The notes under the pieces were generated by a model, which did no database searches, was not told where the DNA came from, and saw nothing but the letters and a program-made list of their open reading frames with translations. From a virus (lineage: Duplodnaviria; Heunggongvirae; Uroviricota; Caudoviricetes): 64,000 bases of DNA. The position numbers were made by a program, and so were the translations under genes. Every line of letters starts with the position of its first letter. The first letter of the stretch is position 1. Where the stretch lies: positions 68,002 through 132,001 of the IMG/VR virus record IMGVR_UViG_3300008108_000037. The stretch is one strand, 5' to 3'. Shown in pieces: positions 11,084 to 50,857 of the stretch.

Positions 11084-11512
11084 TTATACGCGCAGAAGGA
11101 GACAAAGTTCCACGAAAGATCTTTCTATGCTGGATCCGTTTCGAAAAATTAAAAAGTTTTCCTCAGGACCTTCAAAATTTTTAACGTGTAACTTTTCCTT
11201 CCCTCCGTAATCGTTCCTGGAAAATAAAACCTCTACAACATCGTTATTTTGCTTTAGATCTTCCCTTATAGCACGATAAGGACAAACCATACTTATCACC
11301 ACGTTATGTCCTTTAACCGACATAAAACGAGCTATAGTGAAGGACCTTTCTATGTTCTTGATCCTGCCAGAATAAGAATAGTCAGTATTGGGGAATATTT
11401 CCCTCAGATCATCGCCATCTATCCATACAGTTCCCATTCCTAATCTTCTAACTAAGAGCTCTGCCATTGTAGTTTTACCCGATCCTGGCTGTCCTATTAA
11501 TAGGTATATCAT
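11084..11512 (-). CDS. cysC: adenylylsulfate (APS) kinase
   Basis: P-loop LIGQPGSGKTT, IDGDDLRE (APS kinase LDGDNxR-like block), ISMVCPYRAIREDL (CysC SPYxxxR-like block); 142 aa. Confidence 0.6.
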   Translation of the reverse strand: MIYLLIGQPGSGKTTMAELLVRRLGMGTVWIDGDDLREIFPNTDYSYSGRIKNIERSFTIARFMSVKGHNVVISMVCPYRAIREDLKQNNDVVEVLFSRNDYGGKEKLHVKNFEGPEENFLIFRNGSSIERSFVELCLLLRV

Positions 11513-24468: not shown

Positions 24469-25122
24469 TTAAATTATTTTGGCGCTAGGCGCTATTTTAT
24501 TGAATTCGTTGATCGAATGGCTAGAGTATTCTGGATCTTCAAATATAATTCCATGATTTCCGTTCCCACTTTTATCGAATGTTTTAAATTTTGAATTTCT
24601 TTCAAAATCAAAAAACGAGTACAGCTTTTTTGATTTCTCGTCAAAGGAATCGACGATTTCATCGAAAACTGCAATTTTATAAATATCCCCTTTGAACCAG
24701 CATTCATAAGATCCACTGTATGGATTTATAGATCCTATAAAAATATTCTTGTCTGAATAAGATTCAATTGGACCGGTTTCTTTTTCACCTTTTAAAATTC
24801 CATCGATGTATATTTTAACAGAATCTGAAACTGTCACCATGACCTCCATTCTTTTATGTATATCATCAACAGGTATCCAAATATCGTTATATTGATAGGG
24901 TTTAGTGTACCAAGAGAATTTAACACCATTTGGTTTCTGTAAAAATATTCCCATATGGTATCCTATCCTTCCTACAATCAACGACTCATCCTCTGCAAAC
25001 TCAGAGAGTTGAAAATCCCCATAAAGAGAAAAATTCCCCTCCAGATTTTCAAAATTCTTTGTGTTCGTATTATTTTTAGAATTGTTTGGGATGTAATATG
25101 CTTTCTTTTCGAATCTCATCAA
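24469..25122 (-). CDS. LamG/concanavalin-A-like lectin-fold protein
   Basis: IYIDGILKGEK...NIFIGS...WFKGDIYKIAVFDEI matches the LamG F-x-G-x-I-D-E-hydrophobic signature. Confidence 0.4.
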   Translation of the reverse strand: MMRFEKKAYYIPNNSKNNTNTKNFENLEGNFSLYGDFQLSEFAEDESLIVGRIGYHMGIFLQKPNGVKFSWYTKPYQYNDIWIPVDDIHKRMEVMVTVSDSVKIYIDGILKGEKETGPIESYSDKNIFIGSINPYSGSYECWFKGDIYKIAVFDEIVDSFDEKSKKLYSFFDFERNSKFKTFDKSGNGNHGIIFEDPEYSSHSINEFNKIAPSAKII

Positions 25123-26501
25123 ATTATTTTTTTATAAAATTCCTCAAATTCTGGAAAAACCTTCAAAAAATTGGTGCCTCTTCTTTTATCGTGATTGTCT
25201 ACAAAAATTCGGAAATCCCTCCTGTTCTGTAATAAGGTCTCTTCAGGTTCTTCCGTTACCATCCAATCATGAATTCTATTTAACTTATTGATTTCGATGT
25301 CGGTATATCCAAATCCATCAAGACCAACTCTTATTTGTTCGTAGAAGTCCATTAGCTGAGCTTGCTCTTTTACTACTGCAGACCATTCCTTATCTAATAT
25401 TTTCACTGTCTGGTGTGGAGGCCACCTTAAATAGGACGAGTCTAACATAATAGAGGAGCCATAGTATCTGTGAGGGTTGTGATATTCTTCCTTAAGCTTT
25501 ACCACATTTTCTATTAACTTTTCATAATTAGGAACGGAAAGTGCGTTATATGTGGACATTATTATTACGGTCAGAGGCTCAATTTCTTTCAATAGAAAAT
25601 TAACTCTATCCCACCATTGGTTGAAGACCAAACCATGTCTAATGTATTCAGCTTGTTCTCCCCAGGTATCTGCACTGGTAAATAGTATCACCTCGTTTAC
25701 CCTGTTCTCGTCTATCATTCTTTTTAATTTTTCTACCATTAGATTAAAAAGCTTATCTGGTGCTCCTAAATTCGTATTGAGAGAAAAATTTAAATTTCTG
25801 TTTGGGTTTTTTTCATCCAAGATATAATCAAAAACCTTAAAAGTGTCTTTAGACAGAAGAGGTTCCCCTCCCGTTATTCTAAAAGTATGAAGATCTCTGT
25901 ATAAATCAGGCCACCATTTCCAGAAAGCCTCAACGTATGGGTTCTCCTGATTATGCGGTCTTGGGATCATGTTCAGATCCTTCAAATATTCTAAATTGTT
26001 AAATCTAAAGCTGGTAGGATATGGTCCATGCTGCTCTATTTCTTGAACCCATTGGGAAGAGAACGACGGTCCACAATACGAGCATTTAAAATTACAGTGA
26101 TTACTAAAAGCTACCTCAACATACTTAGGATTGTAATTTTCTTTCCACCCTAAATCTTTTATTTCATTAAAATATGGGGCAGACCAGGGTTCAGAAGATT
26201 TATAAATTCTATCGGAAAATGCATTTGATGTATCTTCTATATTCCAGCAATAATCGCATTCGTCTGGTCTTTTACCGTGAAGCATTTTTCTTCTCTGCTG
26301 CTTTTTATAAACTGTATTATGTAGAGCAGATGGGTTTTTTTCTAACTCTGATAGTGGGATATGATGCGTGCCTGGATGGTGACACGAATGTGTTTGTCCC
26401 ATTTGTAAATGAAGTGTTACTTGAGTCCATTTTGCTAAACAAAAGCCACATCCAACATCGTTTAATTTATTTCTAGTTTTGTCGAAAAATTCGTTTAGCA
26501 T
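25119..26501 (-). CDS. radical SAM enzyme with N-terminal Cys/His-rich extension (long subfamily)
   Basis: GCGFCLAKWTQVTLHLQMGQTHSCHHPGTHHIPL, ECDYCWNIED, then FSNHCNFKCSYC (CX3CX2C), FRITGGEPLL; paralog of 22908-24467. Confidence 0.6.
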   Translation of the reverse strand: MLNEFFDKTRNKLNDVGCGFCLAKWTQVTLHLQMGQTHSCHHPGTHHIPLSELEKNPSALHNTVYKKQQRRKMLHGKRPDECDYCWNIEDTSNAFSDRIYKSSEPWSAPYFNEIKDLGWKENYNPKYVEVAFSNHCNFKCSYCGPSFSSQWVQEIEQHGPYPTSFRFNNLEYLKDLNMIPRPHNQENPYVEAFWKWWPDLYRDLHTFRITGGEPLLSKDTFKVFDYILDEKNPNRNLNFSLNTNLGAPDKLFNLMVEKLKRMIDENRVNEVILFTSADTWGEQAEYIRHGLVFNQWWDRVNFLLKEIEPLTVIIMSTYNALSVPNYEKLIENVVKLKEEYHNPHRYYGSSIMLDSSYLRWPPHQTVKILDKEWSAVVKEQAQLMDFYEQIRVGLDGFGYTDIEINKLNRIHDWMVTEEPEETLLQNRRDFRIFVDNHDKRRGTNFLKVFPEFEEFYKKII

Positions 26502-27808: not shown

Positions 27809-29251
27809 TTATGCTTTGCAATTAATCAGAAGGGTATTGTTGAATACCTCTTTAGTAGAGACTAACTCGTACTTCATACTGTTGAATCCCTCACTTTTAT
27901 AGTTTATACATTTCCTTTGCATTTCAGTTACGAACCTTTTTTCATTTCTTGCTGTTGTTTCCCCCTTTGCCCACTTATTATTTACTAGCCCTTCGTCAAT
28001 GTGTGGTAAACACTCGAAAGATCCTTCTCTCCTATAAGGAATTGGCATGTCGCTAACCTCTATGGAATCTTCAACGATTTCTAAATTATAAGCCTTAGCT
28101 TTAATTCCACTCATTACGTCTTCGATTTCTCCATTTTCTATCAAATCAAATTTAAAATGCAGAACTGGCTTATGTTTTAAATCGTGAAATTTAGTAACAT
28201 CTCCTGGAATTTTTACTGCCTTATCAAAAATCATTAATTCTGCAATTTCACCTCTAAAAAATAATGGATTTTCCTCGTCGCCGTTATATCCCATGATAGA
28301 TTTTTCTTTATCCCTATACTGAAATAAATCATTATTTATTATTGTAGATTTATTTTCTTTGATTCCTTTTTCGTTAGATCTTGCTAGTTCGTCATTTAGA
28401 AAAAAATTAAAGTGACCACTTGAAGAATCATAAGATGTTGTTACCCAGGACCAAACACCATCATCCCTCTTGATCCAATTATAGATCTGGGATGATGAAA
28501 AATCTGAAATCATGCTAGTAACAGCTCTGGAGTTGTTAAAAGATATGCAGTACGGACTATATGATTGCTTTCGGAAAACCGGAAATTCTATGAATTTTTT
28601 GTCATCCGTTCCTATTAGCCAATCTTTATATTTTTCAGGTTGTTGTTCTGCTTTAAATAGAGCACATACCGTATGATCTGATCCCAGTATTTTGTTTATG
28701 GATTTTATCCATGGGATTTCAACATATGAGTTGTTTCCATTAAATCTTGAAAATTTTCTTTTTTTATATTTTTTATAAATCCTTTTTTCAACATATCCTT
28801 CGAAATAACATCGATAAAAAAGGTCGTCATCTTCCATACCCCAATCCCAATAATCATTAGAATATCCGTTAGTTTTTATAACTTGATCCTTAGTAAATAG
28901 AATTACCCCACCGAAGTATTGTTCATAATTTAGTTTGAAATCGTACTTCGAAAGTTTTGTTGCTATATGAATTGGATATTTTTCCGGATATGAATAGTCA
29001 CAATCATCGGAGAATGGCACCATATCAACGTCATGCCATGCAATATAATCACATCCATCATCGAAGGCAAACTTGGCTGCTATGTTTTTCATTAGTCCCC
29101 TATTAAACAGCTTATTATCCACCTGATGGGCCACATAAAATTTATGATCTATTCCACGATTTTTTAGATACTCCCCCAGGTCTTCAGTTAGCTTCTGTAA
29201 GTGATCGAATCTATTTCTGTAAGGTATGCAAATTCCCAGTTTATGACTCAT
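27809..29251 (-). CDS. GT7-family (beta-1,4-galactosyltransferase-like) glycosyltransferase fused to C-terminal LamG-like domain
   Basis: FNRGLMKNIAA...DYIAWHDVDMVP...YFGGVILFTKDQVIKTNGYSNDYWDWGMEDDDLFYRC is the GT7 core (FNRG, DVD, WGWGxEDDD); C-terminal FFRGEIAELMIFDKAV LamG signature. Confidence 0.55.
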   Translation of the reverse strand: MSHKLGICIPYRNRFDHLQKLTEDLGEYLKNRGIDHKFYVAHQVDNKLFNRGLMKNIAAKFAFDDGCDYIAWHDVDMVPFSDDCDYSYPEKYPIHIATKLSKYDFKLNYEQYFGGVILFTKDQVIKTNGYSNDYWDWGMEDDDLFYRCYFEGYVEKRIYKKYKKRKFSRFNGNNSYVEIPWIKSINKILGSDHTVCALFKAEQQPEKYKDWLIGTDDKKFIEFPVFRKQSYSPYCISFNNSRAVTSMISDFSSSQIYNWIKRDDGVWSWVTTSYDSSSGHFNFFLNDELARSNEKGIKENKSTIINNDLFQYRDKEKSIMGYNGDEENPLFFRGEIAELMIFDKAVKIPGDVTKFHDLKHKPVLHFKFDLIENGEIEDVMSGIKAKAYNLEIVEDSIEVSDMPIPYRREGSFECLPHIDEGLVNNKWAKGETTARNEKRFVTEMQRKCINYKSEGFNSMKYELVSTKEVFNNTLLINCKA

Positions 29252-30654
29252 ATTCCTACGTTAATTTCTGTTATATTTCCCTCTCTTTTTCTTCCGTGAT
29301 CTGTGTACTTTAGATCCGATAATCCGTCTCCAAATAAAAGATTGCTGTTATTTCTTACCTCGTTATAGAATCTTAATTGATTCCATCTAGTTGCTTTATC
29401 CTTCCATCTATTTTCGAAGAAACCATTTTGCTCATGTTTCATGGATTTAAAGATAGAATCCCTTCTGATCGGAAGGTCTATTTTTTTAAACCAAGGACCT
29501 TCCATATCAACAATTTCACATTTGAAAATACTAGCATCGTTTCCGTTTCCTGAAAGATCTACTAACTTATAATTTTCTATGTGCTCTGCATCATAGTGAC
29601 AAAGAATGGATCCGGATTTTTTATATTCCGAAAAGTCGTTTGTTGCTGAAACAGATTTAACTTCATTTTCACTTAAAATTCCTTCTAAGACTACCAAAGA
29701 ATCTATGTACCCCTTGAAAAAATTAGGATCTCCATTTCTTTTAGGATTTCCTGCACCGATAAAGAAATACTTTTCGTCTGAATAATCCTTTAATTCTCCC
29801 TCCCAATTTGTTTTTCCTATATGTTCTCCGTCTTGATAGAAATTTATTTCTCTCAACGATTGATTTAATGTGATACAAATATTTGTTTGATAATTAGTAG
29901 TTATTTCTGTGTTTATGTATGATGCTTTTTCTTCGGAGTTGAATGTAACAAAATTGTATCTCTTGAATGAATTATAGGAAATTGCAGTGTCATACCCCGG
30001 AATGCTAAAAACCGTATAAACATCAAGATCCTTCGTTGAATCATAAACCAATTCATCGGGGAAAAAAGATGCAAATAATGTTAGATCCTTGTCTATGCAA
30101 AAATTATTTTTTGCTCTCACAAAAGAATCCTGTCCGTTAAATTTTAGTGATTTATGGAAATTTCTTGTTTTTTTGATGTAATAAGGCTCTGTGCCTATGC
30201 TCTTGTTTTTGCATCTTAGGAAAAGGTCATCATCTTCAAATCCCCATCCCCAATACTTATTTGAATATCCGTTTATCTTTTTGAAATCTTTAATCGGAAA
30301 CATAGTGACCCCGCCGAAGTATTCGTCGAATGGCTTTGATCTTTCCCCCGAGTCCTCGTCCTCTATTAGAGTTGCAAGATGAACTGGATGATCACAGTAA
30401 GAATAATCAACATCCAATGGCAGCAAATCAACATCATGAAAAACCACATAATCACATCTTAAGTTTCTGGCACACTTAAATCCTATATTTAATAGCATCC
30501 CTCGATTAAATTGCTTACCGTCGTCTTGATTTACGATGATAATTTCATGTGGTATTTTTTCCTCGTTTAGATATTTTACTATCTCCTTGAGAAAAAAATA
30601 AAGATGTTCCCCTCTGTGGCGGAAAGGAACTATGACTCCTAGTTTTTTATCCAT
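29248..30654 (-). CDS. GT7-family (beta4GalT-like) glycosyltransferase fused to C-terminal LamG-like domain
   Basis: FNRGMLLNIGF...DYVVFHDVDLLP...YFGGVTMFPIKDFKKINGYSNKYWGWGFEDDDLFLRC; C-terminal FFKGYIDSLVVLEGILSENEV LamG signature; paralog of 27809-29251. Confidence 0.55.
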   Translation of the reverse strand: MDKKLGVIVPFRHRGEHLYFFLKEIVKYLNEEKIPHEIIIVNQDDGKQFNRGMLLNIGFKCARNLRCDYVVFHDVDLLPLDVDYSYCDHPVHLATLIEDEDSGERSKPFDEYFGGVTMFPIKDFKKINGYSNKYWGWGFEDDDLFLRCKNKSIGTEPYYIKKTRNFHKSLKFNGQDSFVRAKNNFCIDKDLTLFASFFPDELVYDSTKDLDVYTVFSIPGYDTAISYNSFKRYNFVTFNSEEKASYINTEITTNYQTNICITLNQSLREINFYQDGEHIGKTNWEGELKDYSDEKYFFIGAGNPKRNGDPNFFKGYIDSLVVLEGILSENEVKSVSATNDFSEYKKSGSILCHYDAEHIENYKLVDLSGNGNDASIFKCEIVDMEGPWFKKIDLPIRRDSIFKSMKHEQNGFFENRWKDKATRWNQLRFYNEVRNNSNLLFGDGLSDLKYTDHGRKREGNITEINVGI

Positions 30655-36808: not shown

Positions 36809-37191
36809 GGGGGTGTATTTGGCACTTGACAGACATTGGTAGTTCTTTGAGATGATGCAGGCCGAGTTAGTATTGGAAACTCGTTAATCACCTATGCAAA
36901 CAATAAACGACGTAGAATTATCTACAATGACCTTCGAAGACGCTATGTCTTTCGTTGGTGCTGATTACGCAATAGCTGCCTAATCCCTCCCGCACACATC
37001 GTGGGGCTTAAAATAGAATGTGAACCCAGGTGGAATATGACTGAACCCGAAATCGAGTCATCTGAATTTGGTAGTTTAATCAGCCAACTATAAACTACAT
37101 ATTTTGTTTGTAAAGAAAAACAAGCTAAGCCTGTGAATGAGTTTCTTTTAACAGATGGACTGGACACCGGTTCGATTCCGGTCACCTCCAC
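36809..37191 (+). ncRNA. ssrA: tmRNA (ssrA); CCA not encoded
   Basis: 5' GGGGGTG pairs with 3' CACCTCC with a G3-U70 wobble (alanine identity); 3' tRNA-like T-arm ACCGGTTCGATTCCGGT; internal ORF ending GCT GAT TAC GCA ATA GCT GCC TAA (...ADYAIAA-stop), resembling canonical tags ending YALAA. Confidence 0.6.
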
Positions 37192-39872: not shown

Positions 39873-40520
39873 ATGGCAAATGGAGTATACAAAATTACAG
39901 AAGAATTTGAAAAATCACTCGAAAGCTATACAGGAGCTCCACATGTTGTAACTTTAGACAATCAGAGTAACGGACTTTTTCTTTCCCTATATTATGAAAA
40001 TTACGTTAAAAAGAGCATAGAAAAAGGAAGTATAAAAATTCCAAGTCGAACTTATCCTTCAGTTCCTTGCGAGATTATTCATGCTGGCCTTAAAGTAGAG
40101 TTTGAGCATGTGAAAGGTAAGACGATTAAAGGTGCATACCAACTAAAAGGGAGCAAGGTTTGGGATTCTGCATTGTGTTTTACCTATAATATGTATAAGA
40201 AAAATACCCATATGTGCGTTTCTTTTACTGGACCATTTAAGCATTTTAAGTTGTCTAAAGGTGGAGCAATATTAACAGATGATCATGAAGCATATCTTTG
40301 GTTTAAAAGAGCTAGATATAGTGGCAGAAGAGAATGTTCTTATCATGACGATCACTTTGATATGCTGGGATGGAATTTTTATATGATGCCAGAATTAGCA
40401 GCAAGGGGTTTACTCATGATGGGACAATTTTATGATCCTACAACGGGAAAACCTAAAAACAATCCAGATCTGGAACTACCATATCCAGATTTATCAAAAT
40501 TTGATATTTATAAAAAATGA
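39873..40520 (+). CDS. hypothetical protein
   Basis: 215-aa ORF; no motif recognised. Confidence 0.3.
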   Translation: MANGVYKITEEFEKSLESYTGAPHVVTLDNQSNGLFLSLYYENYVKKSIEKGSIKIPSRTYPSVPCEIIHAGLKVEFEHVKGKTIKGAYQLKGSKVWDSALCFTYNMYKKNTHMCVSFTGPFKHFKLSKGGAILTDDHEAYLWFKRARYSGRRECSYHDDHFDMLGWNFYMMPELAARGLLMMGQFYDPTTGKPKNNPDLELPYPDLSKFDIYKK

Positions 40521-42700
40521 GTAAAAAATTATCTATAATAATTCCCTCACTAAACAGGGAAAAATTACTTATAAGTTCTATCAATAGCATAGTAGAAATT
40601 TTTAATTCATTCAACTTTCAAGATTATGATGTACATGCTATAGTAAATGGGTCAAACAAAAATACAACAGAAAAAATTAGAGAGAATATTTTTTTACATC
40701 ATCATGAAAAAAAATTGAATCCTGGAATAGCGAGAAATATAGGAATTGAAAAAAGCGACTCTGAGTGGATTTGGTTTATTGACGACGACGATGAAATAGT
40801 AGGTGAAAACATATCAAAAGTAATAGATTTTTTATACGACAAAAATGGTAATCATGGATTCGATTTAATAGCTCATTCTTTAAAAAATAAATACATTCCG
40901 GAAGATAATAAGAGATCTCTATTGGAAAATGTTTGTTTTTTTAAAGAAAAACAGGAGGCATTCAATTACATTTTCAAAAGAGATTTAATAAAAAAGCATA
41001 ATATATTATTTTCCGACGGATTACACGAGGATATCAGATACGTAACAGAACTGATAATAAATTCCTCCATCATTAAAATATTTGATTTTTTCCTGTATAA
41101 AAAAATTAACCGGGATGATTCGATAACTAAAAATCTCAATCCATCTAGAATAGATGGATATTTACTAGCAATCAGCGAGATTCAATCACTAGATAGCGAT
41201 GAAATTTCTTCGATGTCTAATGGAATAGTGACACAGTGTCTAGGAACTATCCTATATCTAATAAACAAATCCCAAAATAAGTTGGAGCTACTAGAATATC
41301 TGGACAGCAAATTCACATTTTATCTAAGATCAAAAATAACCGAAACGTATAGTGAAAAAGATACTAATTTCAAATACGCTGTTTCTCTTTACATTAATAA
41401 GAAAGACAATCTAGTATTTCTTGAAAGATTAAACGAATGCTTTTCTAGCTATCTCTCTTGTAGAGATCTAAAAAACTCAATATTTCTTGGTCCGAAAGAA
41501 ATAATAGGATGCTGTAAAAGATTCTTTTATAATGGTAAGATGAAGGGTGACATCGTTTTAATGTCGGAATCAATAGATGTTAATTTAGATTCTATACTTA
41601 AAAGAAAGGCTGAGGTTGAAGATGGGATAAATTCACAGACATATGAACCTTGTGAGGGGTGCCCTTATATAGAAAGATATAGTAGATTAGAAAATAAAAA
41701 AATAAACTACATAAGCTTAGAAAATTTCACTTATTGCAACATGCGTTGTACTTATTGTTCTCCTAAATATTATGGGGGTAAAGAAGCAGTATACAACACT
41801 CATGATATAATTAGTCAATTAATAGATGGTGAATATCTTGACGATAAAGTACACGTTGTTTGGGGAGGGGGAGAGCCAACATTACAAAGGGAATTTGGGG
41901 AAATAACAGAGAAACTAATAAACATAGAAAATGTCTATAAGATAAGAGTTCTTACAAACAGTCTAAGATTTTCAAACGATCTTTATAACCTAGCATCGAA
42001 TGATAAAATAAGGATAGTTACTAGTATAGATGCAGGAACTCAAGATGTATTTAAAAATATCAGGGGAAAAGGAGAAATTTTAACAGTTTTAGAGAACCTA
42101 AAAAAATATACAGAGCAAACCAAGGATCCAGAGAATCTAACTTTAAAATACATTCTAACTGAACAAAACTATCATTCCAATCAGTTAGAACAATTTGTAA
42201 AAACTATAAAAGAATTTGGATTTGAAAACAATTTTGTCCAAATAAGTTGTAATTTTTTATATGATCATCTGGGTGATGAGATAATATTTTCAATATACGA
42301 ATTAGCAGCTAGACTATTAAATAATGGATTTAAGTTTGTTTATTTTGATGATTTAATCCGTGACAGATTAGCTATAAGTGAGGATATTGCGGATAAAGTA
42401 ATCAATTATTTGTCGGAAAAATACCTCTATCACGATGATATAATTTCTTATAAGAGTAATAAACGGGTAGTTCTTTGGGGAGATGGATACCAATCTAGAT
42501 GGATAAAAAACAGCACAACCTTTGGAAAATCTAATAAAATAAGGGGAATCGTTTCCGATATAAATGGATTTAACAATTTGAATTTAAATGTGGGTTTTAC
42601 AGTATCCCCTGCCGCAATCCAACAATTACCAGACATATTTAAGGAAATTAAGAAGGAAAAAGATGTCTATAATAAATTGAAATTCCACATATTTCTATAA
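40517..42700 (+). CDS. GT2-family glycosyltransferase fused to C-terminal radical SAM domain
   Basis: N-terminal LSIIIPSLNRE and WIWFIDDDDEI (GT2 core, DxD); C-terminal NFTYCNMRCTYCSP (CX3CX2C) and HVVWGGGEPTLQ (GGEP); 727 aa, 4-nt overlap with upstream gene. Confidence 0.6.
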   Translation: MSKKLSIIIPSLNREKLLISSINSIVEIFNSFNFQDYDVHAIVNGSNKNTTEKIRENIFLHHHEKKLNPGIARNIGIEKSDSEWIWFIDDDDEIVGENISKVIDFLYDKNGNHGFDLIAHSLKNKYIPEDNKRSLLENVCFFKEKQEAFNYIFKRDLIKKHNILFSDGLHEDIRYVTELIINSSIIKIFDFFLYKKINRDDSITKNLNPSRIDGYLLAISEIQSLDSDEISSMSNGIVTQCLGTILYLINKSQNKLELLEYLDSKFTFYLRSKITETYSEKDTNFKYAVSLYINKKDNLVFLERLNECFSSYLSCRDLKNSIFLGPKEIIGCCKRFFYNGKMKGDIVLMSESIDVNLDSILKRKAEVEDGINSQTYEPCEGCPYIERYSRLENKKINYISLENFTYCNMRCTYCSPKYYGGKEAVYNTHDIISQLIDGEYLDDKVHVVWGGGEPTLQREFGEITEKLINIENVYKIRVLTNSLRFSNDLYNLASNDKIRIVTSIDAGTQDVFKNIRGKGEILTVLENLKKYTEQTKDPENLTLKYILTEQNYHSNQLEQFVKTIKEFGFENNFVQISCNFLYDHLGDEIIFSIYELAARLLNNGFKFVYFDDLIRDRLAISEDIADKVINYLSEKYLYHDDIISYKSNKRVVLWGDGYQSRWIKNSTTFGKSNKIRGIVSDINGFNNLNLNVGFTVSPAAIQQLPDIFKEIKKEKDVYNKLKFHIFL

Positions 42701-42726: not shown

Positions 42727-43827
42727 ATGAAAAATAAAAAATTAAAAGTTTCTGTCATAGGAGGGGGTATAAATTCTGCAGTGGGATACGCACACTATTC
42801 TGCTATTAAGCTTTCAAACAAGTTCGAGATAACCTGCGGAAATTTTAGCAGAAATTCAAAGACTAATAGGGAAAGCGCTGAAATATATGGAGTGAATAAA
42901 GTTTATAGCGACTATAGGACTATGCTGTTGGAAGAAAAAAATAATATAGATGCAGTTGTAATATTAACCCCTACGGATCAGCATTATGATCAGTTAGACC
43001 TTGCAATAAGCTTAGGAATCCCTATTGTTTGTGAGAAATGCTTGATCGCTAATAATTTGGAATTAGAAAAACTGAAGGAGAAACAATCTAATAATTTCAT
43101 AGCAGTTGTTTTCAATTATCTCTGTTATCCTATGTTGAAGGAATTAAAAAGCATAATTGATTCGGGTGGAATTGGAAAAATTTTACAGATTCAAATCGAG
43201 ATGCCGCAAGAAGGATTTCTTAGGCACATGAACGGATTACCACTTAAACCACAAAAATGGAGATTAGTGGATGGAAGAGTTCCCACCCTTTCTCTTGATC
43301 TAGCAACGCACACATATTCTATAGTAAGATTTTTAACATCACAAAATCCTTTAGAGGTTATTGCAGTCGAAAGTAGTTTTGGAAATTTTCCTGGAATAGT
43401 TGATGATATAAATTGCATAATTAAATACACGAATGATATAATTTGTAATATGTGGTATAGTAAAACCGCATTAGGGAATAGAAATGGATTAAGGGTTAGA
43501 ATATTTGGGTCTGATGGAAGTGCAGAATGGTACCAATTAGAACCAGAAGTAATTCACATGTCAGATAAAAGTGGAAAGATATCTTTGCTAGATAGGGGAT
43601 CTGAAGGATTATTAACAGCTAATGAATTCAAATATAATAGATTCAAAGTTGGGCATCCTGTAGGATTTATTGAATCCCTCGCTAATTTTTATGAGGACGT
43701 CTATGATGATTTTAAAAAAAGTCATGATGATCGCGTTACATATGGTCTAGAGCAATCAGAGGAGTGTATTAAACTGCTAGAGGCAATATCTAAGTCATCC
43801 GAAGAAAAATCTTGGCAATCCTTATGA
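42727..43827 (+). CDS. Gfo/Idh/MocA-family NAD(P)-dependent sugar oxidoreductase
   Basis: KVSVIGGGINSAVGYAH...IDAVVILTPTDQHYDQ...IPIVCEKCLI matches the family N-terminal Rossmann and EKP block. Confidence 0.55.
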   Translation: MKNKKLKVSVIGGGINSAVGYAHYSAIKLSNKFEITCGNFSRNSKTNRESAEIYGVNKVYSDYRTMLLEEKNNIDAVVILTPTDQHYDQLDLAISLGIPIVCEKCLIANNLELEKLKEKQSNNFIAVVFNYLCYPMLKELKSIIDSGGIGKILQIQIEMPQEGFLRHMNGLPLKPQKWRLVDGRVPTLSLDLATHTYSIVRFLTSQNPLEVIAVESSFGNFPGIVDDINCIIKYTNDIICNMWYSKTALGNRNGLRVRIFGSDGSAEWYQLEPEVIHMSDKSGKISLLDRGSEGLLTANEFKYNRFKVGHPVGFIESLANFYEDVYDDFKKSHDDRVTYGLEQSEECIKLLEAISKSSEEKSWQSL

Positions 43828-44987
43828 AAAAAATTTTACTGCTCGATACTAACGTTTCATCGTTTCCTATTTATAATTTTTTGGTTAACGAGGGATATGA
43901 AGTTTATGTTGCTGGATCAAAAGAAAATGATTGTCTGGCAAAATGCTCTACTAATTATATTTTTTTAGACTATTCCAGAATAGAAGAATTAAACAAAATA
44001 ATTGAAGATTATAAATTTGATTATATTGTTCCAGGGTGTAACGACATGTCTTATGCTTGTGTTACTAAAATAAATAAATCTAGAAAATTTCCTGGATTAG
44101 ATCCGACTGAAATTTGCGAAACTATTAATAATAAATCGATGTTTAGGGATTTTGCAATTTCGAATGGATTAAATGTTCCCAAGGTTTATTCTTTAAAAGA
44201 TGCTTATTGTGTTAATGTTCCACTAATAATAAAACCAGTTGATGCTTATAGCGGGAGAGGGATTTCTATAGTAAACGAACCAAACAAGATGTTACTAGAT
44301 TTGGCTGTTGAAAATGCTATAAAATTTTCAAAAGACAAAAAATATGTAATAGAAGAATACAAAACAGGTCAGCTATACAGTCATTCTGCATTTATAGAAA
44401 ACAAAAAGATAGTAAAAGATTTTATAGTTGTAGAAAATTGTACTGCCAATCCTTTTACTGTGGATTCTAGTTATGTTGTACATGATGACTTTCCTGTTAA
44501 TTTGCTAGAATCAATAAGGAAAGATATAGAGATAATAGCAAAAATTTTAAAATTAGAGGATGGTCTTATTCATACGCAATTTATAAGGTCTGGAGATTCT
44601 TTTTATATAATAGAGGTTACCAGAAGATGTCCGGGGGATTTGTATAGCTTGCTGATTGAAAAATCTACAAATTTTAAATATTCACAAAATTATGTTAGAC
44701 CTTTTATTGGGAAAAAAATAATACAATCCACATCAGAAGAAATTAAAAAATACATTTTTAGACACACTATATCTAGCGATGCAGACCTTTTTTCGATTGG
44801 AATTGAATTTAAAAACGAATTGGATATAGATTTATACATTTCTCTTTCTGTTACTGGGGATGAAATGAAAAAATCACCATTCAGTAGATTTGGTCTGGTC
44901 TTCATTAAATGTAACGATCAGAAGGATCTTGAGAATAAATACGGCCTAGCTTTGAGGAGAGAACTATATTATTATAAGAGTATATAG
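43812..44987 (+). CDS. ATP-grasp domain ligase
   Basis: PLIIKPVDAYSGRGISIV and YVIEEYKTGQLYSHSAF resemble ATP-grasp B-loop/core blocks. Confidence 0.5.
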   Translation: MAILMKKILLLDTNVSSFPIYNFLVNEGYEVYVAGSKENDCLAKCSTNYIFLDYSRIEELNKIIEDYKFDYIVPGCNDMSYACVTKINKSRKFPGLDPTEICETINNKSMFRDFAISNGLNVPKVYSLKDAYCVNVPLIIKPVDAYSGRGISIVNEPNKMLLDLAVENAIKFSKDKKYVIEEYKTGQLYSHSAFIENKKIVKDFIVVENCTANPFTVDSSYVVHDDFPVNLLESIRKDIEIIAKILKLEDGLIHTQFIRSGDSFYIIEVTRRCPGDLYSLLIEKSTNFKYSQNYVRPFIGKKIIQSTSEEIKKYIFRHTISSDADLFSIGIEFKNELDIDLYISLSVTGDEMKKSPFSRFGLVFIKCNDQKDLENKYGLALRRELYYYKSI

Positions 44988-45003: not shown

Positions 45004-45327
45004 ATGATTACAGTAACTGAAAAAGCAGCACAAAGAATTAAATACCTAATAGAAGAAGCAGAAGATTCTAAGTTTTATCTAAGAGTATCTGTTAAAGGGG
45101 GAGGATGTAGCGGACTTTCATATGATTTATCATTTGATGACGAGATGAACGAAAAAGACACTCTTTATGAAGATAAAGCAGTTAAAATATTAGTGGATAA
45201 TAAATCCATTCTTTATCTGTTTGGAACTGAACTAGACTTCTCTGACGGACTTAACGGTAAGGGATTTCAGTTCGTAAATCCTAATGCCTCCCGCACATGT
45301 GGATGTGGAGAAAGCTTTGCTGTGTAG
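45004..45327 (+). CDS. IscA/HesB/ErpA A-type Fe-S cluster carrier
   Basis: VKGGGCSGLSY...GFQFVNPNASRTCGCGESF: the three conserved Cys (C-x...C-G-C-G) of A-type carriers; 107 aa. Confidence 0.7.
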   Translation: MITVTEKAAQRIKYLIEEAEDSKFYLRVSVKGGGCSGLSYDLSFDDEMNEKDTLYEDKAVKILVDNKSILYLFGTELDFSDGLNGKGFQFVNPNASRTCGCGESFAV

Positions 45328-45343
45328 CTTGATATATAGCTAC

Positions 45344-46036
45344 ATGATAAAGGGGTTTTCTGAATACATTAACGAAGCTTATAGCAATCCTAAAAATTAT
45401 ACGGATTTAAAATACGGAAATCCACAAAAGTGGCAAAAAGAAGCCATGGACAGAGGATCTAACCTTTTAAAATCTGTCAAAGAATCAAATCTTTGGGAAA
45501 AATGGACTTCTAGTTTACCTCCCAATCAAGATTCAGAGGAGGTAAAATCCGATTTACAAAATTTAATTCTCATGGGAAATTCTTTAACCGAGGAGGAAAA
45601 AGAGTTTGTAAAGGATTCAGAAAATGATATGCTAGGAATCTTTGAGAAATTTTTAAAGTTAAATGGGGTTGATTCTATTAAGAAAGAAGATTTGGAATCG
45701 GTAACAGATGAATTGGATCCGATCACTTTTATTTTAAAATATCAGTTTAACTATCCTAGACCACTTCAACTGGCTCTTGTCCACGACATACCCCTTTATC
45801 CAGAGCAGCCAACTAACGCTTGCAGTCCCGCTTATCCTTCCGGACACTCAATAGATGCTTTTGTGATTGCTGGATTGATTGCTAAAAAATACCCTCAACT
45901 TGCCGATGATGTTTCTAAGCTTTCTGAAAGAGTTTCTATGACTAGAAACCTGGGAGGAATACATTTCACGTTTGATTCATCCTTTGGTAAAGAAATAGCA
46001 GAAGATATACTTTCTTTGGATCTTTTATCCCTTTAG
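45344..46036 (+). CDS. PAP2-superfamily phosphatase (start taken at internal Met)
   Basis: YPRP (KxxxxxxRP), YPSGHS (PSGH), SMTRNLGGIHFTFD (SRxxxxxHxxxD) tripartite PAP2 signature; ORF-track start 45284 would overlap IscA gene. Confidence 0.5.
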   Translation: MIKGFSEYINEAYSNPKNYTDLKYGNPQKWQKEAMDRGSNLLKSVKESNLWEKWTSSLPPNQDSEEVKSDLQNLILMGNSLTEEEKEFVKDSENDMLGIFEKFLKLNGVDSIKKEDLESVTDELDPITFILKYQFNYPRPLQLALVHDIPLYPEQPTNACSPAYPSGHSIDAFVIAGLIAKKYPQLADDVSKLSERVSMTRNLGGIHFTFDSSFGKEIAEDILSLDLLSL

Positions 46037-46153: not shown

Positions 46154-49100
46154 ATGGCAAATTATAGAATTTTAGGACAAGAAACTGTTAACAATTCGGT
46201 AAGTCCGGGACCTACCCTTGTAACACTTTATACGGTTCCTCAAAATGCTTCCATTCTAATCAATGCAATAACCGGATATAATGAGGGATTTAATAGTGGA
46301 TATCTTACCGTTGCAGTAAAAAGGAACGGGGACGAGGACTATTCTCCAGATCAAATTGTTATAAATACTCCCTTAGCACCCGGTGCTTCAATACAAATTT
46401 CTCCTCAATTTTCTCCTGTTGGTTTAACTGCCGGCGACGTAATACTTTTAGTTGGTAATTATTCTCCTGCCCCTACAACAGTAGCGGTAACCTTATTCGG
46501 TGAAGACGGGGCTTCTAGCGGTGGATCCGGCAATGCAGGAACATCCGGAACTTCAGGAAACAGTGGGGGCTCAAGTACTTCAGGAAGTAATGGTACTAGC
46601 GGGACTTCGGGAACTAATGGATCTACAGGAACTGGTGGTACTAGTGGTACCTCTGGAATGAACGGATCTATCGGAACTAATGGTACGAGTGGAACCTCAG
46701 GTGAAACCTTCGGAACTAGTGGAACGTCAGGGGCAGCTGGTGCTCCTGGAGCAGCGGGATCTTCTGGAACATCTGGGGTTTCCGGAGCATCTGGTTCTTC
46801 TGGAACCTCTGGGGTTTCCGGAGCATCCGGTTCTTCCGGAACATCGGGAAATTCAGGTTCTTCTGGAACATCTGGGATTTCCGGGGCATCTGGTTCTTCC
46901 GGAACATCAGGAAATTCGGGATCCTCTGGTACATCAGGAAATTCGGGAACCTCTGGTACTTCGGGAGAATCTGGTTCTGCTGGTACATCCGGATCATCTG
47001 GAACATCAGGAAACTCCGGGTCATCCGGTACATCAGGAAACTCCGGGTCCTCCGGTACATCAGGAAATTCGGGAACCTCTGGTACTTCTGGGGAATCTGG
47101 CTCTTCTGGAACATCAGGATTCTCTGGGTCCTCCGGAACATCAGGAAACTCCGGGTCATCCGGTACATCAGGATCCTCTGGAGAACCCGGTTCTGCCGGA
47201 ACATCGGGATCCTCAGGTACATCTGGTACATCAGGAAACTCCGGGTCATCCGGTACATCAGGGTCATCCGGTACATCAGGGTCCTCTGGTACATCTGGTG
47301 CTGATGGTACATCCGGTTCTTCCGGAACCTCGGGAAACCCTGGATCATCAGGGACCTCTGGAACATCAGGAAACTCTGGATCATCGGGGACCTCCGGATC
47401 CGCTGGAACTTCTGGTTTAAGCGGAATATCTGCAGGACAGATTTATTATTTTAACCAATCTCAGTCTTCTGACATTTCTCCATATAAAGTCCTTAGTGTT
47501 TACCCATCAGGAGCTGCTGAACAAACAGTTCCTATGGTATTAACGGGCGGGCAATTGAATGTTCTGGTAAGTCAATTCCTGACCCCCGAATTGGGATTTG
47601 CTGTAATTCCACCAGGCACTCAGAGATTTCATCTGCATTTTTTAAAACAACAGTTTAATGATGACATAGATGGCTATGTTACCATAGAACTTGCAAATTC
47701 GTCAGGTGTAGGATATGGCACTATTATTCAATCAAACAAAGCTTTAATTGGATGGGTGAGTGTTTCTCAATCTTATGAGCTGTTGGTTGATATTGTTTTA
47801 CCTTCAGTATACATAAACACCACAGACAGAATGATTGTCAAGGTTTACGTTGACAATAATGAAGCAACCGTCAGAAATTTAACTTGGTACACAGAGGGGG
47901 CTCAAAACTATTCATATGTAATCACATCGGTTGGAGCAATTGTAGCAAGCTCTGGAACGTCAGGGAGTTCTGGAACTAGTGGATCAAGCGGAACTTCGGG
48001 ATCCGGGGGTTCATCAGGAACTAGCGGATCTAGTGGATCGGAGGGAACTTCAGGTAGCTCTGGTACTTCCGGCAGTTCTGGAACCTCTGGAGAAGATGGA
48101 ACTTCAGGTAGCTCTGGTACTTCCGGCAGTTCTGGAACCTCTGGAGAAGATGGAACTTCGGGATCTGGGGGTTCATCAGGAACTAGCGGATCTAGTGGAT
48201 CGGAGGGAACTTCAGGTAGCTCTGGTACTTCGGGAACCTCTGGAGAAGATGGAACTTCAGGTAGCTCTGGTACTTCGGGAACCTCTGGAGAAGATGGAAC
48301 TAGTGGATCTTCAGGTACATCAGGAACCTCGGGGGTGTGCGAGTGTCCACACAGCTACACTATCACGGCTCCAACGGATATCACGTGTTACTCTTTAACA
48401 AATGACGGAGATCCCGACAACGTAAATAGTACAAACTATCTCGATTGTAACGGGAATCCTGCGGTCATTTACAATAAAATTTTTCTCACACCAGCTACTT
48501 ATTTCTGTGCTCAGACCGGATCTGTTACAACTGATTCGGGGCTCACTGTAATATCAGTACCTGATGATCCTGGATCTTGCGACGGATGTTGCGATGGATA
48601 TGCTTATTCTTATACCGACGAAACAGATACTATCATAAGTGGAATCATATATGACGGAGAATCTCTAACTTTCTGTGCGATCCCAGGATCTGTAGTTTGG
48701 TCCCATACAATAGTAGACAATGGGCATTGTGTAGGAAGTTCAGGTACTTCCGGCAGTTCTGGTTCGAATGGTACGTCAGGTAGCTCTGGTACTTCCGGCA
48801 GTTCTGGTTCGAATGGTACGTCAGGTAGCTCTGGTACTTCCGGCAGTTCTGGATCTTCTGGGACATCAGGAACTGATGGTTCCTCCGGTAGTACAGGTAC
48901 TTCTGGTTCTTCCGGCAGTTCTGGATCTTCTGGGACATCAGGAACTGATGGTTCCTCCGGTAGTACAGGTACTTCTGGATCCTCAGGGTCATCTGGAACT
49001 TCCGGAACTGATGGATCTTCAGGTACATCAGGTAACTCTGGTTCTTCTGGAACCTCAGGATCAGCAGGTACATCAGGAAATGAGGGTCCCCCTGGATCTT

Positions 49101-50857
49101 CGGGAACGTCAGGAATTGATGGAACCAACGGATCGACAGGTTCTTCTGGAACCTCAGGAAACTCTGGTTCTTCAGGTACTTCAGGTACTTCAGGTAGTTC
49201 TGGTTCAACTGGTACTTCAGGTACTTCAGGTAGTTCTGGTTCAACTGGTACTTCAGGTAGTTCTGGTTCTTCTGGAACCTCTGGTTCTTCTGGTTCAACT
49301 GGTACTTCAGGTACTTCCGGTAGTTCTGGTTCAACTGGTACTTCAGGTAGTTCTGGTTCTTCTGGAACCTCAGGAAACTCTGGATCTTCTGGAACCTCTG
49401 GAGCATCAGGATCTTCTGGAACCTCAGGAAACTCTGGTTCTTCTGGAACCTCTGGAGCATCAGGTAGTTCTGGTTCTTCTGGAACCTCTGGAGCATCAGG
49501 ATCTTCTGGAACCTCAGGAAACTCTGGATCTTCTGGAACCTCAGGAAACTCTGGATCTTCTGGAACCTCTGGAGCATCAGGATCTTCTGGAACCTCAGGA
49601 AACTCTGGATCTTCTGGAACCTCTGGAGCATCAGGATCTTCTGGAACCTCTGGAGCATCGGGAGCTAATGGATCTTCTGGAACCTCTGGAGCATCAGGAT
49701 CTTCTGGAACCTCTGGAGCATCAGGAGCTAATGGATCTTCTGGAACCTCTGGAGCATCAGGAGCTAATGGATCTTCTGGAACCTCAGGAAACTCTGGTTC
49801 TTCTGGAACCTCTGGAGCATCAGGAGCTAATGGATCTTCTGGAACCTCAGGATCTTCTGGAACCCGAGGTTCCTCAGGAACTTCAGGAGCTTCCGGTGGA
49901 AACGGAACATCCGGAACTTCAGGAGCTTCCGGGGGAAGCGGAACATCCGGAACTTCGGGAGCTTCTAGTTCAGCAATATCTAGTAATAACATCGACAACT
50001 ATGTTGTTACCATGACTGGAAACAATTCCACGCCTTTCCAAGGGGAGCCTAACTTAACATTCGATAATACGAGACTTTTTGTAACTGGGAAAGTAAGGGT
50101 TTATCAAAATCCATTAAGCATAAGTTCAGGAAGTCTTTCTTGGCCTTTAAGATCTGGAGCAAATGCAACAGTTACTTTAAATCAAAATGTAACTACGTTT
50201 ACACTTAGCGAATTTGAAGCTGGAGATACTGGGGTATTAATAGTAAAACAAGATGCTACTGGAGGTAGAACAATGGTACTTCCCTCTAGTTCACAAGTAG
50301 TTGGAGGAGGATCTTATACCCCAACATCCGCTGCAAACTCACAAGACGTTCTTGGAGTTTACTACGACGGAACAACATATTTCTGGACCATTGGGCTCGC
50401 TAGTGTTACAGGTAACTTACTTACAATAAACAATAATGCAGATCACAGAATATTGACTGCAACTGGTAGTGCTACTTCGATAGACGGAGAAACAGGATTG
50501 ACTTATAACAGCAGTACATTAGCAGTAACTGGAGCAATCACAGCAACAGGAGATATCACTGCTTATTCATCTTCGGATGAAAGATTAAAGGATAATATTT
50601 CGGTTATTCAGGATGCTTTGGAAAAGGTCTCTAGCATAAGAGGAGTGGAATTTGATTGGAACGACAAGGCTCATGAAGTTAATAGAGGTCACGATCTTGG
50701 AGTAATTGCTCAAGAGCTGATTAAAGTTCTTCCTGATGCAGTTAAAGAAAGAGAAGATGGATATTATGGGGTAAGATATGACAGAATTATACCTCTTCTC
50801 ATAGAGGCTATAAAAGACTTAAGAAAAGAAATAGAAGAACTTAAAAGAGAAAAATAA
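46154..50857 (+). CDS. collagen-like tail fibre protein with C-terminal S74 intramolecular chaperone (endosialidase-chaperone) autoprocessing domain
   Basis: Hundreds of Gly-X-Y triplets dominated by GTSGSSGTSGNSG, in three blocks separated by globular inserts (one Cys-rich: VCECPHSY...CDGCCDGY); C-terminus SSSDERLKDNISVIQDALEKVSSIRGVEFDWND...HDLGVIAQELIKVLPDAV...YYGVRYDRIIPLLIEAIKDLRKEIEELKREK matches the phage tail-fibre IMC/peptidase S74 domain. Confidence 0.75.
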   Translation: MANYRILGQETVNNSVSPGPTLVTLYTVPQNASILINAITGYNEGFNSGYLTVAVKRNGDEDYSPDQIVINTPLAPGASIQISPQFSPVGLTAGDVILLVGNYSPAPTTVAVTLFGEDGASSGGSGNAGTSGTSGNSGGSSTSGSNGTSGTSGTNGSTGTGGTSGTSGMNGSIGTNGTSGTSGETFGTSGTSGAAGAPGAAGSSGTSGVSGASGSSGTSGVSGASGSSGTSGNSGSSGTSGISGASGSSGTSGNSGSSGTSGNSGTSGTSGESGSAGTSGSSGTSGNSGSSGTSGNSGSSGTSGNSGTSGTSGESGSSGTSGFSGSSGTSGNSGSSGTSGSSGEPGSAGTSGSSGTSGTSGNSGSSGTSGSSGTSGSSGTSGADGTSGSSGTSGNPGSSGTSGTSGNSGSSGTSGSAGTSGLSGISAGQIYYFNQSQSSDISPYKVLSVYPSGAAEQTVPMVLTGGQLNVLVSQFLTPELGFAVIPPGTQRFHLHFLKQQFNDDIDGYVTIELANSSGVGYGTIIQSNKALIGWVSVSQSYELLVDIVLPSVYINTTDRMIVKVYVDNNEATVRNLTWYTEGAQNYSYVITSVGAIVASSGTSGSSGTSGSSGTSGSGGSSGTSGSSGSEGTSGSSGTSGSSGTSGEDGTSGSSGTSGSSGTSGEDGTSGSGGSSGTSGSSGSEGTSGSSGTSGTSGEDGTSGSSGTSGTSGEDGTSGSSGTSGTSGVCECPHSYTITAPTDITCYSLTNDGDPDNVNSTNYLDCNGNPAVIYNKIFLTPATYFCAQTGSVTTDSGLTVISVPDDPGSCDGCCDGYAYSYTDETDTIISGIIYDGESLTFCAIPGSVVWSHTIVDNGHCVGSSGTSGSSGSNGTSGSSGTSGSSGSNGTSGSSGTSGSSGSSGTSGTDGSSGSTGTSGSSGSSGSSGTSGTDGSSGSTGTSGSSGSSGTSGTDGSSGTSGNSGSSGTSGSAGTSGNEGPPGSSGTSGIDGTNGSTGSSGTSGNSGSSGTSGTSGSSGSTGTSGTSGSSGSTGTSGSSGSSGTSGSSGSTGTSGTSGSSGSTGTSGSSGSSGTSGNSGSSGTSGASGSSGTSGNSGSSGTSGASGSSGSSGTSGASGSSGTSGNSGSSGTSGNSGSSGTSGASGSSGTSGNSGSSGTSGASGSSGTSGASGANGSSGTSGASGSSGTSGASGANGSSGTSGASGANGSSGTSGNSGSSGTSGASGANGSSGTSGSSGTRGSSGTSGASGGNGTSGTSGASGGSGTSGTSGASSSAISSNNIDNYVVTMTGNNSTPFQGEPNLTFDNTRLFVTGKVRVYQNPLSISSGSLSWPLRSGANATVTLNQNVTTFTLSEFEAGDTGVLIVKQDATGGRTMVLPSSSQVVGGGSYTPTSAANSQDVLGVYYDGTTYFWTIGLASVTGNLLTINNNADHRILTATGSATSIDGETGLTYNSSTLAVTGAITATGDITAYSSSDERLKDNISVIQDALEKVSSIRGVEFDWNDKAHEVNRGHDLGVIAQELIKVLPDAVKEREDGYYGVRYDRIIPLLIEAIKDLRKEIEELKREK

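Follow-up and report, generated by a model that had tools for sequence, protein, structure and literature searches.

Sugar-acting radical S-adenosylmethionine (radical SAM) enzymes are, to our knowledge, few and almost all from antibiotic pathways, and we know of none that is fused to a glycosyltransferase. Here we analyse a 727-residue open reading frame (ORF) in which an N-terminal glycosyltransferase domain of family GT2 is joined to a C-terminal radical SAM domain, encoded at 40517..42700 on the plus strand of a 64,000-nucleotide stretch (hereafter the window) of the viral record IMGVR_UViG_3300008108_000037. The protein is likely a bifunctional enzyme of glycan biosynthesis that forms the core of a mobile four-gene cassette, carried in this case by a large T4-like phage.

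The closest described relatives of the N-terminal half are the wall-teichoic-acid GT2 enzymes TarS, TarP and RmlT (PDB 5tze, 6h1j and 8bz5), which were the best sequence-profile and Foldseek matches of residues 1 to ~310. They share with the fusion a GT-A fold, a DxD motif, an Asp base within an 'ED' motif and, outside the core GT-A fold, an additional region that is mainly helical. However, identity is only 14–20%, the fusion lacks the oligomerisation domains found at the C-termini of TarS and RmlT and has the radical SAM module in that place, and its hosts are Gram-negative bacteria or phages, so that a poly-ribitol-phosphate acceptor is not implied.

On the radical SAM side, the twitch domain-containing proteins of family NF033640, which as far as we could find is without a characterised function, carry a Cys-rich SPASM/twitch-type module N-terminal to the barrel, a layout that the twitch-like module of the fusion resembles in its position and its C...CC...CxxC pattern, and four true members are encoded in the same window; the fusion differs from them in its extra C-terminal alpha/beta domain and its GT2 partner. 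In BtrN and anSME, which are twitch/SPASM dehydrogenases, the auxiliary module is C-terminal, whereas the putative one of the fusion is N-terminal; no specific sequence relationship to these enzymes was detectable, and the cassette of the fusion also contains a dehydrogenase of the Gfo/Idh/MocA family. None of the sugar- or nucleotide-acting radical SAM enzymes DesII, AprD4, BlsE and viperin is fused to a glycosyltransferase or has an N-terminal five-cysteine module, and their likeness to the fusion is confined to the common barrel. Precedents for a radical SAM protein and a GT2-type enzyme in one pathway are provided by MftC/MftF (mycofactocin) and ArsS/TIGR04283 (arsenosugar). These were weak NCBIfam matches of the fusion, with scores far under the cut-offs, but they are separate proteins with other substrates (a peptide and an arsenical) and other gene neighbourhoods.

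Both superfamilies are well known and, in principle, their combination comes as no surprise; public databases already list the architecture under such generic names as 'glycosyltransferase', 'AslB', 'MoaA' and 'organic radical activating enzyme'. Neither a solved nor a curated family containing the fusion was found in NCBIfam, PDB profile or structure searches, and the literature yielded nothing relevant on a GT2–radical SAM fusion, on radical SAM enzymes in flagellin glycosylation, on twitch radical SAM enzymes acting on sugars, or on jumbo phages with a transfer-messenger RNA (tmRNA) and radical SAM genes. A survey of pelagimyophages describes cassettes of glycosyltransferase and radical SAM genes in a hypervariable region near the tail fibres (PMC7029224), a region similar in kind to that of the window.

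Modules of the fused protein

The ORF starts with ATG and encodes 727 amino acids followed by a stop codon. Both domains exceeded the curated Pfam thresholds, Glycos_transf_2 (PF00535) at residues 6–110 with an E-value of 9.3e-18 (65.2 bits, cut-off 23.3) and Radical_SAM (PF04055) at residues 405–540 with an E-value of 5.3e-18 (66.2 bits, cut-off 29.5). A preliminary description of the window had recognised the two halves by the motifs LSIIIPSLNRE, WFIDDDDEI, CNMRCTYC and GGGEPTL, and all four are present in the translation of 40517..42700. From an AlphaFold model and alignments, five modules could be delimited:

40517..41140, plus strand: GT-A catalytic domain (residues 1–208), matched by PF00535 and by the TarS profile, with the DxD residues D89/D91/D92 at nucleotides 40781-40792
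41141..41446, plus strand: helical subdomain and linker (residues 209–310), with helices at 209–309 in the AlphaFold2 model at a predicted local distance difference test score (pLDDT) above 90
41447..41701, plus strand: Cys-rich twitch-like module (residues 311–395), a beta-hairpin plus a helix in the model
41702..42436, plus strand: radical SAM core barrel (residues 396–640), with the CX3CX2C motif C407/C411/C414 at nucleotides 41735-41758
42437..42697, plus strand: C-terminal alpha/beta mini-domain (residues 641–727), with beta-alpha-beta elements at 650–713 in the AlphaFold2 model

The N-terminal half has the attributes of a GT2 enzyme, namely a PF00535 score above threshold, a GT-A fold, and a DxD motif together with an acidic base residue. 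In a PDB profile search TarS (5tze) matched the family profile with an E-value of 1e-21, and its E177-D178 aligned with E171-D172 of the fusion; TarS D178, the counterpart of fusion D172, is the TarS catalytic base. Residues D89, D91 and D92 of the DxD motif, H120 and E171-D172 were invariant in 98 of 98 sequences. Foldseek searches with the fusion model returned RmlT, TarS and TarP at E-values of 5e-13 to 1e-10, in alignments of 340–400 columns that hence take in the helical subdomain. From these sequence features we infer glycosyl transfer by the N-terminal half, and by analogy with its structural relatives the helical subdomain (residues 209–310) would contribute to acceptor binding. In GT-A enzymes, an acidic 'DD' following strand beta-2 contacts the nucleotide. 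At the corresponding residues 43–44 (nucleotides 40643-40648) the 'DD' is kept in bacterial homologues and replaced by N/V-S/N in the phage-like clade (alignment A2), which hints at a different donor nucleotide or at weaker binding.

The C-terminal half shows the SAM-binding motifs of radical SAM enzymes (GGE, the ribose motif and the beta-5 motif) on a partial TIM-barrel fold, with GGGEPT at residues 450–455, VTSxDxG at 501–507 and KYI at 544–546. Cysteines C407, C411 and C414 were 100% conserved in both alignments (57 and 98 sequences), and in the module preceding the barrel C315, C332, C333, C379 and C382 showed at least 98% conservation in the 57-sequence alignment, which includes stand-alone as well as fused homologues; these five are predicted ligands of an auxiliary Fe-S cluster. 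The C...CC...CxxC pattern of this module aligned with the N-terminal SPASM-type domains of the window's NF033640 proteins with an hhalign E-value of 3.5e-4 but a probability of only 37%. The C-terminal mini-domain contains an LWGxGxQ loop, and its G655 and G657 were at least 95% conserved in the wide family. No Pfam family matched the twitch-like region or the C-terminal domain of the fusion; PF22674 is listed on stand-alone homologues in precomputed Pfam annotation. There was also no Pfam match to the SPASM domain PF13186, and the region C-terminal to the barrel is without conserved cysteines. The B12-binding domain PF02310 gave no Pfam match in the fusion at E-values up to 1, unlike a related phage locus (L016) that has a B12-radical SAM gene call.

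When residues 300–727 were modelled separately, so that GT2 matches would not swamp the search, the model had a pLDDT of 93.1 and a predicted template modelling score (pTM) of 0.91. Its top structural neighbours were the peptide- or protein-modifying enzymes SkfB, CteB, SuiB, anSME and PFL-AE, at a best Foldseek E-value of 3e-7 and TM-scores of at most 0.40. The model confirms a radical SAM fold, but the solved relatives are not close, and therefore no reaction appears transferable from them to this half. In NCBIfam the fusion obtained only generic matches below the cut-offs, including PapB and PglI-type glycosyltransferases, and it is not a member of MoaA (TIGR02666, 56.4 bits vs a cut-off of 284), viperin (NF038283, 33.1 vs 180), ArsS (TIGR04167, 29.3 vs 300) or NF033640 (40.6 vs 170, over model positions 100–311 only, that is, the barrel). 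Stand-alone radical SAM relatives, at 31–69 bits, are not members of NF033640 either. The radical SAM half therefore would seem best described as a distinct family with an N-terminal-twitch layout and a predicted second Fe-S cluster.

Fused and split forms in bacteria and phages

A frameshift or mis-assembly that joined two neighbouring genes, which the preliminary description had itself raised, is conceivable in principle, as split adjacent versions of both genes are known in other genomes. We nevertheless give this explanation a negligible probability and regard the single-ORF fusion as real, because four lines of evidence speak for it. The identical 727-residue product was found on at least 23 independently assembled contigs from several metagenomes (JGI and ENA samples), one of them of 0.2–1 Mb; these contigs come from 38 blocks of the collection. 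Among 5.8 billion proteins, more than 100 clusters of 699–770 residues carried both Pfam domains and matched over the full length at 33–73% identity, and a profile search of 1.84 billion representatives again returned many full-length fusions. Unbroken conservation crosses the domain junction in alignments of 24 and 98 members, and the full-length AlphaFold model is confident (pLDDT 93, pTM 0.86, no segment below 50). The two other frames of the same strand are closed by 88–90 stops, and homopolymers around the junction do not exceed A7. The architecture is no one-off but belongs to a widespread family, as the clusters and the bacterial genera listed below show.

In a genome scan that took one genome per species, fused genes were present in Aquabacterium, Hyphomonadaceae, Neptuniibacter, Azospirillum, Helicobacter, Rhizobium, Vibrio, Maricaulaceae, Planctomycetaceae and Sulfurimonas. 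Split but adjacent genes, with the GT2 gene upstream of the radical SAM gene, occurred in single-cell genomes of Prochlorococcus and Pelagibacteraceae (SAR11). The profile search also recovered a stand-alone radical SAM form of ~435 residues that covers profile positions ~330–740; on a TARA contig its gene lies directly downstream of a 352-residue GT2 gene and is accompanied by genes for Gfo/Idh/MocA, an AMP-binding enzyme, an 82-residue ORF (of a family that resembles acyl carrier protein (ACP) in our census of partners) and DegT. In a rough, distance-only neighbour-joining tree, the clade of the window grouped with the nearer bacterial fusions, and the remaining fused forms were interleaved with stand-alone ones, an interleaving that suggests more than one fusion or fission event. 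Several stand-alone homologues of ~450 residues without a GT2 domain (P0255, P0256, P0264 and others) bear the JGI label 'poly(ribitol-phosphate) beta-N-acetylglucosaminyltransferase', which is probably misleading and carried over from fused relatives. The cassette had no nucleotide match among GenBank phages, and tblastn with the fusion gave four weak radical SAM matches only, in Listeria phage fragments, and no cultured phage with the fusion. An exact 40-mer taken from the gene had no match in the IMG/VR collection searched, from which this genome is thus absent.

In the window, the fusion is the second gene of a compact group on the plus strand, which is followed by a gene for an Fe-S carrier:

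39873..40520, plus strand: mini-DegT, a pyridoxal phosphate (PLP) aminotransferase-like protein of 215 residues (PF01041), cassette gene 1
42727..43827, plus strand: Gfo/Idh/MocA NAD(P) oxidoreductase, identified by Pfam, best PDB relative 3v5n, cassette gene 3
43812..44987, plus strand: ATP-grasp amide ligase (Pfam ATP-grasp_4 / ATPgrasp_ST), for which the public gene call starts at 43824, cassette gene 4
45004..45327, plus strand: IscA-type Fe-S carrier (Pfam PF01521, Fe-S_biosyn, E-value 1e-19)

Pfam confirmed all three flanking genes that had been reported before, the Gfo/Idh/MocA, ATP-grasp and IscA genes; the earlier picture of the cassette had overlooked the upstream mini-DegT and the N-terminal five-cysteine module. 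The ATG of the fusion overlaps the stop codon of the mini-DegT gene in an ATGA at 40517-40520, suggesting translational coupling of the two ORFs. Compared with a DegT of ~370 residues, mini-DegT is without ~35 N-terminal residues, an internal segment of ~37 residues and the whole C-terminal domain; both the PLP-lysine motif (SFTGPFKH) and the cofactor aspartate (WDSA) are retained. No PDB sequence matched the protein. In the viral loci L001-L003 it is 76–80% identical over its full length and is better conserved than the fusion. Among PDB proteins, the ATP-grasp protein is most like 3vot, an L-amino-acid ligase, and 4dim, an entry titled phosphoribosylglycinamide synthetase. An assignment of the Gfo/Idh/MocA protein as a UDP-sugar 3-dehydrogenase of the WbpB/GnnA type was considered and found to be unsupported; uncharacterised oxidoreductases head its PDB matches, and dehydrogenases of the inositol and levoglucosan types rank lower. 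An IscA copy 72% identical to that of the window lies beside NifU_N near the cassette in L003 and L014 (L014 19486-20219). The IscA protein probably assists the five radical SAM enzymes of the phage, and it seems that such phages carry genes for Fe-S assembly helpers together with their radical SAM genes.

The order mini-DegT, fusion, Gfo/Idh/MocA, ATP-grasp recurred in the window and in three IMG/VR contigs at 55–80% identity, and on gene order and content these four genes can be taken as a mobile cassette. When all ORFs within 8 kb of the gene were clustered across 26 non-redundant loci, Gfo/Idh/MocA was the most constant partner (21 loci), followed by ATP-grasp in at least 15 loci, an undercount in that the L007 copy was missed because of ORF overlap, and by full-length DegT, also in 15, with the 215-residue mini-DegT in 4 further loci. 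Less frequent partners were an epimerase/dehydratase of the short-chain dehydrogenase/reductase (SDR) family (10 loci), an AMP-binding enzyme (8), an RmlA-like nucleotidyltransferase (5) and an ACP-like protein of ~90 residues (5). In Neptuniibacter the order is FlaG, FliD, FliS, a GT41 protein with tetratricopeptide repeats (TPR), SDR, RmlA-like, DegT, Gfo/Idh/MocA, ATP-grasp, GT2–radical SAM, Methyltransf_24, FleQ. By its gene content this locus is a flagellin glycosylation island, and it contains the bacterial equivalent of the cassette, with a full-length DegT.

Proposed coupling of sugar transfer to radical chemistry

The preliminary description had proposed that glycosyl transfer and radical modification are coupled on the same sugar. 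The coupling of sugar transfer to radical tailoring appears well supported, because more than 100 clusters are fused, because the GT2 and radical SAM genes are adjacent when split (in Prochlorococcus, SAR11 and the TARA contig), and because the sugar-modifying partners are constant; the reaction itself, its substrate and its target are proposals. The C-methylation, epimerisation or dehydration named there as examples cannot be told from the sequence. The fusion has no B12 domain, and a candidate hydrogen donor of the epimerase type, C578, was dropped; it is invariant in the fused proteins of alignment A2, yet conserved in only 32% of the wider family, and is therefore no general catalytic residue.

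The proposed sequence of events is as follows. The GT-A domain, with its metal-binding DxD motif (D89/D91/D92) and Asp172 as base, would catalyse inverting transfer of a sugar from a nucleotide-sugar donor to an acceptor, which may be a glycan, a polyol or protein-linked and which the TarS/TarP-like helical subdomain would help to hold. In the C-terminal half, a [4Fe-4S] cluster at C407/C411/C414 would cleave SAM to a 5'-deoxyadenosyl radical, and this radical would take a hydrogen from the same sugar or its substituent, while the predicted second cluster of the twitch-like module (C315/C332/C333/C379/C382) would accept an electron. The outcome might be a two-electron oxidation of the BtrN/anSME type that turns a sugar hydroxyl into a ketone; the DegT partner could then aminate the ketone, and the ATP-grasp enzyme, or elsewhere an AMP-ligase plus ACP, could N-acylate the amine. 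In the butirosin pathway, the twitch dehydrogenase BtrN makes a ketone that the DegT-family BtrS aminates, and the ATP-grasp BtrJ / ACP system supplies an N-acyl group. Because the partner set resembles this pathway logic, a BtrN-like oxidation that feeds amination and N-acylation is our preferred chemistry, although we give it less than half of the weight; dehydration/deoxygenation, epimerisation, and C-C or C-methyl chemistry share the larger remainder. Several observations weigh against the proposal: the Gfo/Idh/MocA partner could already provide the ketone, the structural neighbours of the radical SAM half are generic, and in the GT domain the acidic motif after strand beta-2 is missing from the phage-like clade. 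More speculatively still, a hitherto undescribed kind of glycan editing could take place, with radical chemistry in situ after transfer, on the sugar already placed and by way of the N-terminal twitch cluster, and the large aquatic phage, with its own Fe-S carrier and four further N-twitch radical SAM enzymes, might in this manner build an unusual N-acylated amino sugar on its collagen-like fibre or on the host surface; we would put this forward as a working idea that is rather doubtful as a whole.

Parts of the same evidence can be accounted for in other ways. The GT2 half might be non-catalytic and present a nucleoside diphosphate (NDP) sugar to the radical SAM half, in the manner of DesII or viperin, with another glycosyltransferase using the product. 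Consistent with this, the best sequence matches of the radical SAM core include the nucleotide-binding MoaA and viperin families, many basic residues of this half are invariant (R335, K364, R477, R516, K544, R615 and R617), other glycosyltransferases lie nearby in most loci, and the beta-2 acidic motif is gone in the phage-like clade. However, the DxD motif, H120 and the pair E171-D172, the last of which aligns with the TarS catalytic region, do not vary in any of the 98 sequences, and the helical subdomain of the TarS/TarP/RmlT type is kept and well conserved. If the domain did no more than bind, there would be little reason for a catalytic base to remain under purifying selection, and we consider a presenting role unlikely.

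It is less probable again that the radical SAM half modifies a protein or peptide acceptor, by oxidation or cross-linking as in anSME and the sactisynthases, and that the GT half glycosylates the modified residue; such a role would be in keeping with the nearest structures (SkfB, CteB, SuiB, anSME and PFL-AE), all of which act on peptides or proteins, with the position of the Neptuniibacter gene in a flagellin glycosylation island, and with that of the window gene ~3.5 kb upstream of a collagen-like fibre gene. We attach very little credence to adenosylation of a substrate by the radical SAM half, in the style of ArsS, HpnH or MqnE, with a GT2-like half that processes the SAM-derived sugar, as in the pairing of ArsS with TIGR04283. 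ArsS (TIGR04167) and TIGR04283 are both among the weak NCBIfam matches, and homologues occur in SAR11 and in the marine cyanobacterium Prochlorococcus. Marine cyanobacteria make arsenosugars. However, the scores are far under the cut-offs (29 vs 300 bits for ArsS and 21.6 vs 182 bits for TIGR04283), arsenic genes are absent nearby, and the conserved partners indicate amino-sugar chemistry.

Returning to a bifunctional enzyme that both transfers and tailors a sugar, the family is widespread, in SAR11, Prochlorococcus, Vibrio, Helicobacter, Rhizobium, Sulfurimonas, Planctomycetes and flagellin glycosylation islands, and it moves on phages as a compact cassette. Because of this distribution and the phage-borne cassette, the family probably modifies a sugar on the surfaces of bacteria, and perhaps of viruses, in a common way that has yet to be described. 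This would matter for the recognition between phages and hosts that rank among the most abundant microbes of aquatic habitats. From the pattern of fused and split forms and from the constancy of the partners follows a pathway hypothesis that can be tested directly, in culturable carriers such as Neptuniibacter pectenicola LFT 1.8 (locus L019), Hirschia baltica (Hbal_2322) and Rhizobium aethiopicum; the family is a well-defined and widespread problem of surface-glycan chemistry, and its phage-borne form is unusual.

The phage and its other genes

The fusion does not lie in a bacterial gene cluster; the phage genes around it indicate a large phage. The window contains CHAP and glucosaminidase lysins and an S74 fibre, and its PHROGs matches include a putative endolysin, 2-oxoglutarate (2OG) oxygenases and nucleases; neither capsid nor terminase genes were seen across the 64 kb examined. 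Beyond its right end, on contigs of 153.6 kb and 77 kb on which the gene is 100% identical, lie genes for a UvsX-like RecA, an RNaseH, an AAA_5/DUF2201 pair and NT5C. Contigs that encode either a clamp loader of the T4 type or a DNA polymerase of family B carry the nearest relatives of the fusion and further copies of the cassette. A tmRNA gene at 36809-37191 (plus strand) encodes an unusual tag of 24 residues, DVELSTMTFEDAMSFVGADYAIAA, and 21 tRNA genes between 38855 and 61151 (plus strand) form arrays with small ORFs between them, a large translation-related load for a phage. Judged by its gene content, the window, with a GC content of 31%, would belong to a large T4-like phage with a glycan island of ~35 kb. 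No multi-pass membrane protein was found in the window, and for this reason its enzymes appear to be soluble. Promoter and terminator scans gave results at chance level.

The other genes of note are:

5343-6008 and 6943-7656, minus strand: two 2OG-Fe(II) oxygenases
14452-16383, minus strand: 643-residue protein with a cupin (mannose-6-phosphate isomerase C-terminal type), a nucleotidyltransferase and an APH-like kinase
19510-20679, 20661-21998, 22908-24467 and 25119-26501, minus strand: four NF033640 radical SAM paralogues (307–331 bits vs a cut-off of 170)
27809-29251 and 29248-30654, minus strand: tandem proteins with GT7 (beta-1,4-galactosyltransferase-like) and Laminin_G_3/concanavalin-like lectin domains
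45284-46036, plus strand: PAP2-like (lipid phosphatase) ORF of 250 residues, borderline (28.2 bits vs a cut-off of 27.2)
46154-50857, plus strand: collagen-repeat protein of 1567 residues, with about nine collagen triple-helix stretches and a C-terminal Peptidase_S74 intramolecular chaperone
61186-62274, plus strand: UDP-galactopyranose mutase (Glf), ~50% identical to glf of Streptococcus suis phages

The collagen-repeat gene starts ~3.5 kb downstream of the stop codon of the fusion, directly after the PAP2-like gene, and has a GC content of 45–49%, compared with ~31% elsewhere. Its product is probably a phage fibre and is a candidate target of glycosylation. The PAP2-like ORF had fewer than two transmembrane segments in a crude hydropathy scan; if it is real, it could link the island to lipid-carrier chemistry. 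The presence of Glf implies that galactofuranose belongs to the phage-encoded glycan repertoire, as far as can be judged from the gene, and the 643-residue protein may be a one-protein sugar activation module that unites a kinase with a nucleotidyltransferase. GT7 is a mostly eukaryotic family. The glycan block further includes a GT8 gene, additional GT2-type genes and two Methyltransf_24 genes.

Interleaved with the four NF033640 genes are a DUF6071 gene and unmatched ORFs, and the radical SAM copy at 25119 has a 38% identical homologue in two places of the Ralstonia jumbo phage RsoM2USA. Between 647 and 8448, ~14 minus-strand ORFs of 144–272 residues, in whose run the two 2OG-Fe(II) oxygenase genes lie, are tightly packed, most of those tested being without a family match. 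Two adjacent minus-strand ORFs, at 11084-11512 and 10706-11077, match positions 4–95 and 133–226 of the kinase phrog_10255 (230 positions) and may represent a split or frameshifted gene.

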